From Escherichia coli (GTDB taxonomy: Bacteria; Pseudomonadota; Gammaproteobacteria; Enterobacterales; Enterobacteriaceae): a DNA stretch of 64,000 bases. The DNA is taken from NCBI RefSeq assembly GCF_045037415.1, contig NZ_CP173438.1; one strand, written 5' to 3'. This document shows, piece by piece, positions 35,501-38,500 of the stretch (positions within the stretch are counted from its first letter, which is position 1; each line of letters starts with the position of its first letter). The position numbers are program-made.

Positions 35501-38500
35501 ACCGTCGAGATCGCGAGCGGTGCTGCCGCGCAGACGGTAGCCGTTCAGCTGTGCGCCCTGACCGCGAGTGGCGGTGAACAGTTCGTTACGCATAGGATCG
35601 TATACCACAGCAACTTCGGTGCGGCCTTTGATACGAACGGCGATAGATACCGCGAAGTGCGGCAGACGTTTGATAAAGTTGGTAGTGCCATCCAGTGGAT
35701 CGATAACCCATTGAACATCCTGATCAGTACCTTCAAGTTCACCGCTTTCTTCGGTGATGATGGTGTGCTGTGGGTAAGATTTACGAATCGTGTCGATAAT
35801 CACCGCTTCGGCAGCTTTATCTACGTTGGTCACGAAATCGTTACTGCCTTTCTGGCTCGCTTCTACAGCGTCCGGGGTTTCATAGTTTTTGGCAATTAAA
35901 TTACCCGCCTTGCGCGCTGCGCGCACGGCGATGTTCAGCATCGGATGCATCGGTCTCTCTCACTGGATGTTAAAGAACGGGAAAACGGCGCAGAGTATAG
36001 CAGCGAGATCGGCATCTGTCTTCGTTTTATGATAAGATGCGTGAATAATCTTTAGATGAAGAAAGACAATGCTGCAAAATATTCGAATTGTGCTGGTGGA
36101 GACGTCACACACCGGCAATATGGGTTCTGTTGCCCGTGCCATGAAAACAATGGGATTAACCAATCTGTGGCTGGTTAATCCACTAGTGAAACCTGACTCC
36201 CAGGCGATTGCCCTGGCAGCAGGGGCCAGCGATGTGATTGGTAATGCTCACATCGTCGATACGCTCGACGAAGCGTTAGCCGGTTGTAGTCTGGTGGTGG
36301 GCACCAGCGCTCGCTCCCGCACGCTGCCGTGGCCGATGCTCGACCCGCGCGAATGCGGTCTGAAAAGCGTCGCTGAAGCGGCAAATACCCCGGTGGCGCT
36401 GGTGTTTGGTCGCGAGCGCGTCGGCTTGACCAATGAAGAGTTGCAGAAATGCCATTATCATGTCGCAATTGCGGCTAACCCGGAATACAGTTCGCTGAAC
36501 CTGGCGATGGCGGTTCAGGTTATTGCCTATGAAGTGCGCATGGCCTGGCTGGCAACTCAGGAAAATGGCGAGCAGGTCGAGCATGAAGAGACGCCGTATC
36601 CGCTGGTCGATGATCTGGAGCGTTTTTATGGTCATCTGGAGCAAACGCTGCTGGCAACCGGTTTTATCCGTGAAAACCATCCGGGACAGGTGATGAATAA
36701 ATTGCGCCGTCTGTTTACCCGTGCGCGCCCGGAAAGCCAGGAATTGAATATCCTGCGCGGGATTCTGGCTTCTATTGAGCAGCAGAATAAAGGTAACAAG
36801 GCCGAATAACAGTGGTTGCCTGATGCGATGCTTAACGCGTCTTATCAGGCCTGTAAGTGCACGGAATCCCAGGTCGGATAAGGTGTTCACACCGCATCCG
36901 ACAACAGGTACAAACGCCACGATAAAAAAATGGCACTGAAGGTTAAATACCCGACTAAATCAGTCAAGTAAATAGTTGACCAATTTACTCGGGAATGTCA
37001 GACTTGACCCTGCTATGCAATACCCCCACTTTTACAATAAAAAACCCCGGGCAGGGGCGAGTTTGAGGTGAAGTAAGACATGAGACTGACATCTAAAGGG
37101 CGCTATGCCGTGACCGCAATGCTTGACGTTGCGCTCAACTCTGAAGCGGGCCCGGTACCGTTGGCTGATATTTCCGAACGTCAGGGAATTTCCCTTTCTT
37201 ATCTGGAACAACTGTTTTCCCGTCTGCGTAAAAATGGTCTGGTTTCCAGCGTACGTGGACCAGGCGGTGGTTATCTGTTAGGCAAAGATGCCAGCAGCAT
37301 CGCCGTTGGCGAGGTGATTAGCGCCGTTGACGAATCTGTAGATGCCACCCGTTGTCAGGGTAAAGGCGGCTGCCAGGGCGGCGATAAATGCCTGACCCAC
37401 GCGCTGTGGCGTGATTTGAGCGACCGTCTTACCGGTTTTCTCAATAACATTACTTTAGGCGAACTGGTTAATAACCAGGAAGTGCTGGATGTGTCTGGTC
37501 GTCAGCATACTCACGACGCGCCACGCACCCGCACACAAGACGCGATCGACGTTAAGTTACGCGCTTAATAAAAAGAATTCAGAATCAGGCCGGAGTGCTA
37601 AACACTCCGTAAACACGGTCGTACATCCAGCCGGTAGCCTGGTTCCTTGCATTGAGTGATGTACGGAGTTTATAGAGCAATGAAATTACCGATTTATCTC
37701 GACTACTCCGCAACCACGCCGGTGGACCCGCGTGTTGCCGAGAAAATGATGCAGTTTATGACGATGGACGGAACCTTTGGTAACCCGGCCTCCCGTTCTC
37801 ACCGTTTCGGCTGGCAGGCTGAAGAAGCGGTAGATATCGCCCGTAATCAGATTGCCGATCTGGTCGGCGCTGATCCGCGTGAAATCGTCTTTACCTCTGG
37901 TGCAACCGAATCTGACAACCTGGCGATCAAAGGTGCAGCCAACTTTTATCAGAAAAAAGGCAAGCACATCATCACCAGTAAAACCGAACATAAAGCGGTA
38001 CTGGATACCTGCCGTCAGCTGGAGCGCGAAGGTTTTGAAGTCACTTACCTGGCACCGCAGCGTAACGGTATTATCGACCTGAAAGAACTCGAAGCAGCGA
38101 TGCGTGACGACACCATCCTTGTTTCCATCATGCACGTAAATAACGAAATCGGCGTGGTGCAGGATATCGCGGCTATCGGCGAAATGTGCCGTGCTCGTGG
38201 CATTATCTATCACGTTGATGCAACTCAGAGCGTGGGCAAACTGCCGATCGATCTGAGCCAGTTGAAAGTTGACCTGATGTCTTTCTCCGGTCACAAAATC
38301 TATGGCCCGAAAGGTATTGGTGCGCTGTATGTGCGTCGTAAACCGCGCGTACGTATCGAAGCACAAATGCATGGCGGCGGTCACGAGCGCGGTATGCGTT
38401 CCGGCACTCTGCCTGTTCACCAGATCGTCGGTATGGGCGAAGCCTATCGCATCGCAAAAGAAGAGATGGCGACCGAGATGGAACGTCTGCGCGGCCTGCG

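Follow-up and report, generated by a model that had tools for sequence, protein, structure and literature searches.

Probable canonical two-layer control region of the iscRSUA-hscBA-fdx-iscX operon in an Escherichia coli genome

The control region of the Escherichia coli isc operon analyzed here very probably (about 0.93) represents the canonical two-layer control of iscRSUA-hscBA-fdx-iscX. Both layers are already known: IscR boxes on the promoter and a RyhB-responsive iscR stability element. The region belongs to a 64,000-nt stretch of E. coli chromosome, from contig NZ_CP173438.1 (the window), and the promoter, leader, coding, and spacer elements described below lie on its plus strand. The products of trmJ, iscR, iscS, iscU, iscA, hscB, hscA, fdx, iscX, and pepB all score above the NCBIfam equivalog cut-offs, which bears out, for gene content, the original prediction that the whole operon is present. 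The iscR coding sequence (37080–37568, 162 aa) matches NF008110 IscR with 344.7 bits (cut-off, 275), and that of iscS (37680–38894, 404 aa) matches NF010611 IscS with 817 bits. The last sense codon of iscR, GCT, occupies 37566–37568, and its TAA stop codon is given as starting at 37569.

The region is present in 5425 of the 5426 complete genomes and is 100% identical to that of E. coli SK1144. Its promoter and 5′ UTR are base for base those of K-12 (100%). The iscR–iscS spacer carries two substitutions relative to K-12, and pairing is kept at both (G-C vs. G-U and G-U vs. A-U). The identity of the elements, their positions, structure and covariation, complementarity, and conservation come from the present analysis; IscR binding, RyhB-induced cleavage, and iscR stabilization are taken from the K-12 literature.

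IscR boxes, promoter, and leader of iscR

The published type-1 consensus of IscR is 25 bp long, ATASYYGACTRWWWYAGTCRRSTAT (Giel et al. 2006, 2013, as quoted in PMC6599224 and PMC3899308). Comparison with the published IscR sites yielded two matches upstream of iscR, that we named box A (ATACCCGACTAAATCAGTCAAGTAA, 36947–36971, one mismatch) and box B (ATAGTTGACCAATTTACTCGGGAAT, 36972–36996, three mismatches). The two boxes abut and are the sole matches to the consensus in the 64 kb, where none is expected (100 shuffles) and where the next-best candidate has seven mismatches. Box A is conserved across the Enterobacterales in our alignment, and in 22 of 23 species no other stretch upstream of iscR is as well conserved as box B. 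The type-1 motifs of the isc promoter are described as specific for [2Fe-2S]-IscR (PMC12594620). A weak IscR site C has also been reported for E. coli, as quoted in PMC6599224. The best further match in a consensus search of the region has 10 mismatches, equivalent to background, and a search of the same region with the type-2 motif gave nothing better than background (best match, eight mismatches).

Box B overlaps the probable −35 element, the TTGACC at 36976–36981. Its TTGAC is invariant in the Enterobacterales alignment, and a 17-bp spacer leads from it to TGtCAGACT (36996–37004), a probable extended −10 element whose GGAATGTCAGACT is nearly invariant across the Enterobacterales. A sigma-70 promoter scan called no promoter here, the known iscR promoter included; its criteria are too stringent for a −10 element that reads CAGACT. 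Box B may be placed to occlude the promoter, in agreement with the geometry, the conservation, and the homology to the mapped promoter of Pseudomonas aeruginosa PAO1.

A second TTGACC is found at 37004–37009. It is not a conserved element: it reads TTGAT, TTGCC, TTGCG, or TTGGT in other Enterobacteriaceae and is unconserved outside Escherichia. The two words do not form a repeat family. As each of them fits the −35 consensus perfectly at five of six positions and they stand 28 bp apart, they might be viewed as tandem promoters or as a repeated operator. We consider this very unlikely, because the second word is variable even within the Enterobacteriaceae, has no −10 element at 16–18 bp (TACAAT is 23 bp away), and lies outside both IscR boxes in a region whose next-best consensus match is the one with 10 mismatches. 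The original prediction, which saw an IscR type-1 region in two TTGACC-containing repeats, was therefore right about the region, as two 25-bp boxes with one and three mismatches, but not about the TTGACC words as sites, the second of which is no part of an IscR site. Its proposed start at 36950 was nearly correct, clipping 3 bp off box A.

The iscR 5′ UTR (37012–37079), which we take to be about 68 nt long, would start near 37012, according to homology to the primer-extension-mapped PAO1 promoter. The "nt 1–82" probe of PMC11572966 is consistent with a leader of about 68 nt. The hairpin announced for this leader was found at 37046–37058 (CCCC-GGGCA-GGGG), directly preceded by an A-rich tract (37034–37045) and located ∼7–10 nt upstream of the iscR Shine-Dalgarno sequence. 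Its position is held across relatives and its stem sequence varies by covariation (GCCC/GGGC, GCCCG/CGGGC, CCCA/UGGG, and UCCGG/CCGGA). The fold of the whole 5′ UTR is no more stable than that of shuffled sequences (z = +1.1). OxyS and FnrS have been reported to pair with the iscR 5′ UTR, FnrS at the ribosome-binding site, and the hairpin falls in the region targeted by these two small RNAs (PMC11572966). Running into the iscR AUG, the stretch GAAGUAAGACA (37070–37080) is complementary over 11 contiguous pairs to UGUCUUACUUC of FnrS (hybrid of −20.1 kcal/mol, equalled in 1 of 500 shuffles; FnrS sequence verified). The duplex calculation for OxyS and the 5′ UTR reached no significance. The hairpin and the FnrS complementarity fit the published control of iscR translation by OxyS and FnrS.

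The iscR–iscS spacer and the RyhB site

The 111-nt iscR–iscS spacer (37569–37679) corresponds to Rfam family RF01517, the iscR stability element. The covariance-model match, on the sense strand, extends over 37569–37678 and over model positions 1–110 of 110, scores 136.5 bits where the gathering score is 40 (E = 2e-35), and leaves 1 nt between its end and the iscS ATG (37680). This full-length match agrees with the earlier proposal that the spacer is the structured region protecting iscR mRNA when RyhB acts on the iscSUA part downstream. The length given for the spacer was exact, and the inverted repeat ccggagtg/cactccg is located at 37590–97 and 37603–09. Conversely, the spacer is not GC-rich: its GC content, 46.8%, is lower than that of the window (52.4%). 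As anticipated, folding predicts a stable structure, of −33.0 kcal/mol compared with a mean of −24.1 for shuffled sequences (z = −2.83; 1 of 200 shuffles as good).

The structured core (37582–37645) consists of a 9-bp closing stem (37582–90/37637–45) around two hairpins, hairpin 1 (37591–37609, five of six pairs compensated) and hairpin 2 (37613–37635, five of five pairs compensated). Pairing of the closing stem reaches 100% among 70 distinct enterobacterial sequences, with three of its pairs changed on both sides. Pairing in the spacer holds in 92.5–94.2% of cells, versus 32–53% when the partners are slid (23, then 70 distinct sequences), and 13–14 pairs (13 of 20) are changed on both sides, versus 3–6 in shuffles. 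Helices 2, 3, and 4 of RF01517 are 92–100% paired. The outer Rfam helix 1 (37576–80/37666–70) is 76–78% paired, essentially without covariation. RNAalifold and the folds of individual species gave the same architecture.

Immediately downstream of the core, a region at 37653–37682, or 37652–37683 with one more base on each side, is predicted to pair with RyhB over the Shine-Dalgarno sequence and AUG of iscS. It comprises three blocks: UGAGUGAUG (37653–61), GGAGU (37665–69), which is the Shine-Dalgarno sequence, and GAGCAAUG (37675–82), which includes the iscS AUG. RyhB complementarity near the iscS ribosome binding site, a further point of the original prediction, is thus present as a three-block duplex; this prediction would have been abandoned had structure and complementarity been lacking, and both were found. 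The hybrid of the iscS leader with nt 40–69 of RyhB (its single-stranded core; sequence verified) has an energy of −24.7 kcal/mol, or a net energy of ∼−10.8 kcal/mol after opening costs, and is equalled by 4 of 500 and 5 of 1000 shuffled targets. When the 64 kb were scanned in full with 81-nt windows (mean −17.3, sd 4.3), energies better than −24.7 came from a dozen windows or more, as duplex prediction with long loops is unspecific. The RyhB energy alone is not distinctive; specificity comes from position, conservation, and published experiments. The top match of the scan is a G-U-rich imperfect duplex inside hscA (41251–41300).

The RyhB target segment is invariant in 18 Enterobacteriaceae. 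The GUGAUGUACGGAG...GAGCAAUG leader is kept in Erwiniaceae, Yersiniaceae, Hafniaceae, Pectobacteriaceae, and Budviciaceae, as judged by the sequence of the target site, and is absent from Vibrio and Aeromonas. Position 37657 is a U in 53% of relatives and a C, which breaks one RyhB pair, in 46%. The site is overlapped by a weak 3′ hairpin (UGCAUU/GAUGUA, 37648–37663, −2.9 kcal/mol), which in about half of the sequences is extended to 7 bp by a U-to-C change and an inserted A. According to these comparisons, the structured domain is limited to Enterobacteriaceae and the leader carrying the RyhB site is older.

These data and the K-12 literature suggest the following scheme. With an adequate Fe-S supply, [2Fe-2S]-IscR would bind the two adjacent type-1 boxes (36947–36996), box B covering the −35 element of the iscR promoter, and the operon would repress itself. 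Under iron starvation, Fur-controlled RyhB would pair across the iscS Shine-Dalgarno sequence and start codon, so that translation of iscS would be blocked and the iscSUA part of the transcript degraded. Decay would halt at the spacer core (37582–37645), which is just 5′ of the RyhB site and would be undisturbed by RyhB pairing; a translatable iscR fragment would therefore survive and apo-IscR accumulate. We infer that the domain delimited by the closing stem is the nuclease block. Desnoyers et al. (2009) described how iscRSUA decays differentially in a RyhB-dependent manner, as related in PMC12533949, PMC3089445, and PMC7038943; according to these accounts, RyhB splits iscR off from iscSUA, and iscR accumulates owing to a strong structure between the genes. 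By analogy with what is published for K-12 (PMC12533949, citing Desnoyers 2009), the spacer analyzed here would confer RyhB-dependent stability on the iscR fragment.

Other readings of the spacer and a candidate pseudoknot

Three other identities were considered for the spacer. The secondary literature words the spacer as a dispersed palindromic repeat of the REP/BIME type, a generic stabilizer of the upstream message, and in its function it does resemble a REP stabilizer. Such an identity is nevertheless highly improbable, and we rejected it: the 111-nt sequence occurs in exactly one copy in each of 5424 E. coli genomes (blastn, word size 11, E ≤ 0.01), whereas the true REP cluster located upstream (36806–36936) is found at 40 places or more per genome. 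Likewise, sub-threshold matches to the REP-derived naRNA4 are restricted to 36804–36935, with none in the spacer. Stable GC-rich hairpins right after a stop codon might also be taken for an intrinsic terminator or attenuator splitting iscR transcription from iscSUA. The chance of this is close to nil: the hairpins are not followed by a U-run, the terminator scan of the plus strand returned no candidate in 37569–37679, leading to rejection of an intrinsic terminator, and iscRSUA is described as a single transcript processed after transcription (PMC12533949, PMC3089445). An RNA thermometer of iscS, like the Yersinia element found at the same position (RF02783), hardly deserves more credence. This family does match the iscR–iscS junction in Yersinia, Serratia, Hafnia, Dickeya, Brenneria, and a metagenome-assembled genome labelled Enterobacteriaceae, and the E. 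coli Shine-Dalgarno sequence is partly able to pair in the outer helix. However, RF02783 has no match in 36800–37900, even at E ≤ 1, on which basis the thermometer identity was rejected, and the helix expected to sequester the Shine-Dalgarno sequence is precisely the one lacking phylogenetic support (76–78% paired).

With the spacer read as the iscR stability element, one feature of it may be new. The core of the hairpin 2 loop, CGUACAUC (8 nt, 37620–37627), is the perfect complement of GAUGUACG (37658–37665), a segment that overlaps the first RyhB block and the weak 3′ hairpin and whose last nucleotide is the initial G of the iscS Shine-Dalgarno sequence. The corresponding duplex has a predicted energy of −12.4 kcal/mol, compared with −2.9 for the competing local hairpin. 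The loop of hairpin 2 is far more conserved than that of hairpin 1 (entropy of 0.26–0.82 vs. 1.0–2.2 bits). Of 70 distinct sequences, 61 retain the loop–leader complementarity; the changes that occur preserve wobble pairing (C to U, A to G). The 3′ arm never varies, so that the pairing gives no covariation readout, and in the metagenome set this arm is fixed by the search pattern (the word GATGTACGGAG). From complementarity and conservation, we tentatively put forward, as a speculative addition, that the stability element might include an undescribed long-range pseudoknot between the hairpin 2 loop and the iscS leader. If so, the element would also set the basal translation of iscS, and either RyhB would have to displace the pseudoknot or the pseudoknot would lock in place after cleavage.

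Comparison with known systems

The controls of the isc operon are textbook material, both for autoregulation and for discoordinate operon decay driven by a small RNA, and nothing new turns on them. The refinements gained here are small: the exact coordinates of the boxes, the relevant TTGACC, phylogenetic support for the Rfam helices, the single-copy nature of the spacer, and the candidate pseudoknot. At the promoter, the sequence is that of K-12; the two abutting boxes correspond to the known E. coli sites A and B (Giel et al. 2006, 2013), and box B lies over the probable −35 element. Box B is also nearly identical to P. aeruginosa site B, mapped from −42 to −18 (PMC6599224). The 5′ UTR has the sequence of that studied by Baussier et al. 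(2024, PMC11572966) for OxyS and FnrS control of iscR; the stretch complementary to FnrS borders on the AUG, and the hairpin is located within the 5′ arm targeted by OxyS. A larger Mfold stem-loop is drawn in that study, whereas phylogeny backs the small hairpin of 4–5 bp and the large fold does no better than chance.

The spacer does not differ in any essential way from the RF01517 iscRS element (Desnoyers et al. 2009, EMBO J 28:1551) in position, architecture, or length, the match being full length. However, the outer helix of the RF01517 consensus is without support in our covariation counts, and the RF01517 structure does not include the loop-to-tail complementarity seen here. The IscS-1 ICR thermometer of Yersinia (RF02783) occupies the same junction in sister families and shares the GUGAUGUACGGAG...GAGCAAUG leader of iscS, but its spacer is shorter (54–70 nt). 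As a regulatory class, the system resembles Spot 42 and galK, where a small RNA pairs over the ribosome-binding site within an operon's internal cistron; what lies downstream is degraded and the upstream cistron is spared. Unlike in galK, the upstream isc fragment would be actively protected by a dedicated structured domain, and not simply left untranslated.

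Operon context and the fold of the iscR-iscS spacer

NCBIfam equivalog models identify trmJ (36069-36809), iscR (37080-37568), iscS (37680-38894), iscU, iscA, hscB, hscA, fdx, iscX, and pepB, in this order, in agreement with the original prediction of a complete iscRSUA-hscBA-fdx-iscX operon. The control elements of the isc operon described here are already known; what had been observed in the sequence is confirmed, and its interpretation is supported. The 1-kb segment 36800-37800 is present in 5425 of 5426 complete E. coli genomes and is 100% identical in several complete chromosomes, such as that of SK1144. 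Relative to K-12 MG1655, the alignment shows no change in the promoter or 5' UTR and two substitutions in the spacer, at 37603 and 37642, both pair-preserving (G-C vs. G-U; G-U vs. A-U). Published K-12 results therefore apply directly. Further curated RNA elements in the window, all above their Rfam gathering scores, are rncO (418-632), ohsC (4044-4120, minus strand), GlmY (13319-13466), ryfA (44934-45238, minus strand), and sroE (58075-58166).

The spacer (37569-37679, exactly 111 nt) matches RF01517, the iscR stability element, from end to end (136.5 bits; gathering score, 40), which upholds its proposed identity as a structured element protecting iscR. It is predicted to fold stably, at -33.0 kcal/mol (dinucleotide shuffles, -24.1 ± 3.1; z = -2.83), and the inverted repeat ccggagtg/cactccg corresponds to hairpin 1 (37591-37609). 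Its description as GC-rich was incorrect (46.8% GC vs. 52.4% for the window).

For covariation, we sampled iscR loci from 80 species and 120 metagenome contigs bearing the iscS leader, and aligned all matches to a covariance model that combined the Rfam structure with sequences of E. coli and E. albertii. Standard pairs fill 94.2% of pair cells in 70 distinct sequences, compared with 32-53% once partners are slid by 1-3 columns, and 14 pairs show two-sided changes, against 5.6 ± 1.4 in shuffles; fitting to the model biases these alignments toward the structure, a concern limited by the slid controls and by unfitted analyses. The genome-only set (23 sequences) gives the same picture; RNAalifold, given an unfitted MAFFT alignment, recovers the same core, as do independent per-species folds. 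In this core, the 9-bp closing stem (37582-37590 with 37637-37645) is fully paired (100%) and includes three doubly changed pairs, and compensated pairs account for 5/6 in hairpin 1 and 5/5 in hairpin 2 (37613-37635). The outer Rfam helix (37576-37580 with 37666-37670) is only 78% paired and unsupported among the 70 sequences. The 3' hairpin is nearly invariant, except that half of the sequences have it lengthened by a U-to-C change coupled to an extra A.

As loci L084, L085, and L086 illustrate, hairpin 1 has two alleles in E. coli, K-12-type GGAGUGCUAAAYACUCC and GGGGCGUAUCGCGCUCC (identical to E. albertii), and an intermediate along the path U-A to U-G to C-G. Consequently, the spacer is only 80-95% identical to that of the window in roughly one in three E. 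coli genomes, despite invariant flanks. Judged from the sequences, the same pair-preserving logic is at work within the species as between species. An ERIC/IRU-type repeat of 129 nt separates the iscR stop codon from the stability element in about 490 of the 5426 E. coli genomes (572-700 of locus L083, E. coli FCI56); both ERIC primers match it at 18/20 bases, and it has about eight copies per genome. A homologous insert with 76% identity occupies the same spot in Citrobacter werkmanii (1993-2122 of locus L004).

RyhB pairing at the iscS start and a candidate pseudoknot

The RyhB query sequence is 100% identical to the SK1144 locus between yhhY and yhhX, which scores as RF00057. The single-stranded core of RyhB is complementary to 37652-37683 through three blocks, UGAGUGAUG, GGAGU (the Shine-Dalgarno), and GAGCAAUG, which includes the AUG. 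The complementarity anticipated at the iscS start thus covers both initiation signals, with a hybrid of -24.7 kcal/mol, opening costs of +4.1 (small RNA) and +9.8 (target), and a net value of about -10.8; 4/500 and 5/1000 shuffled targets equalled the hybrid. Since its energy is not outstanding among all windows of the 64 kb, the case for RyhB rests on position, conservation, and published experiments on RyhB and iscRSUA (PMC12533949, PMC3089445, and PMC7038943). Across 18 Enterobacteriaceae, the target segment does not vary. The motif GUGAUGUACGGAG...GAGCAAUG is also present in Erwiniaceae, Yersiniaceae, Hafniaceae, Pectobacteriaceae, and Budviciaceae, and is absent in Vibrio and Aeromonas, whose spacer measures about 30-57 nt. 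The RyhB site is wholly 3' of the domain formed by the closing stem. Of the predicted helices, RyhB would disrupt none but the weak 3' hairpin and the doubtful outer one, and we infer that the core left intact would serve as a 3' block.

Ahead of hscA (ATG at 40276), CTGGAAGC (40263-40270), complementary to RyhB GCUUCCAG, lies on the hscA Shine-Dalgarno region and corresponds to RyhB binding site 2 of a 2025 report (PMC12533949). The strongest RyhB-core hybrid in the window (-36.3 kcal/mol; 41251-41300, hscA coding sequence) is long, imperfect, and G-U-rich, and is probably artefactual, produced by duplex scoring that tolerates loops.

The strongly conserved hairpin 2 loop, CGUACAUC (37620-37627), is a perfect complement of GAUGUACG (37658-37665), adjoining the iscS Shine-Dalgarno, a pairing that the curated RF01517 structure does not include. 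This duplex reaches -12.4 kcal/mol, against -2.9 for the competing local 3' hairpin, beats shuffled loops (p about 0.01), and persists in 93% of cells; only one-sided, wobble-type changes are seen. As its 3' arm never varies, the pseudoknot is beyond proof by covariation, and the coupled change lengthening the 3' hairpin argues that this hairpin also forms. The candidate pseudoknot competes with the 3' hairpin and with the first RyhB block. The secondary literature searched mentions no pseudoknot in the stability element. We consider its formation rather unlikely.

The iscR promoter and 5' UTR

Scanning all 64 kb with the published type-1 IscR consensus (PMC6599224, PMC3899308) returned only two matches, box A (36947-36971, one mismatch) and box B (36972-36996, three mismatches); chance expectation is zero, and every other site has at least seven mismatches. 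Box B and the adjoining GGAATGTCAGACT form the best-conserved upstream block in 22 species. The two TTGACC repeats proposed to mark the IscR region fared differently: the first (36976-36981) falls within box B and is followed 17 bp downstream by TGtCAGACT, a probable extended -10 element, and the second (37004-37009) is unconserved and belongs to no box. This probable -35/-10 geometry would place the transcription start near 37012, with a 68-nt leader, consistent with the literature. The near-identical site B of P. aeruginosa, mapped at -42 to -18 (PMC6599224), and the "nt 1-82" probe of PMC11572966 fit the same start.

The predicted 5' UTR hairpin, CCCC-GGGCA-GGGG (37046-37058, plus strand), lies upstream of the Shine-Dalgarno and has a covarying stem. 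Among relatives, its position is kept and the stem reads GCCC/GGGC, GCCCG/CGGGC, CCCA/UGGG, or UCCGG/CCGGA; this constant place with a changing stem indicates that it is a genuine structure. Folding of the whole iscR leader revealed no unusual stability. FnrS, whose sequence was verified, is complementary to 11 contiguous bases (37070-37080), in agreement with its published pairing with the iscR 5' UTR (PMC11572966). For OxyS, the duplex computed with this leader did not reach significance. On the minus strand, the hairpin and A-tract at 37034-37058 read as a terminator-like site, GCCCCTGCCCGGGG then TTTTTTATTGT. We know of no antisense transcript there; on the plus strand, the A-rich tract may serve as an ARN-type site for Hfq. 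Escherichia sp. ESNIH1 (locus L037, about 1400-1500) carries an AT-rich insertion of ~40 nt in its iscR 5' UTR, after the start-site region and before the conserved hairpin.

Comparison with REP and thermometer elements

The stability element is termed REP-like in the literature (PMC7038943). We rejected the spacer as a REP repeat: it occurs once per E. coli genome, against at least 40 similar places for the real REP/BIME cluster in the trmJ-iscR intergenic region, before the iscR promoter (36806-36936). Sub-threshold naRNA4 matches were seen in that cluster.

Among the relatives' iscR loci and metagenome contigs, RF01517 is restricted to Enterobacteriaceae. RF02783, the IscS-1 thermometer, has no match in the window and is found at the iscR-iscS junction of Yersinia, Serratia, Hafnia, Dickeya, Brenneria, and an Enterobacteriaceae-labelled metagenome-assembled genome, L036 (loci L013, L017, L019, L024, L026, and L036, about 1896-2097). 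Two distinct RNA elements thus occupy the same junction in sister families.
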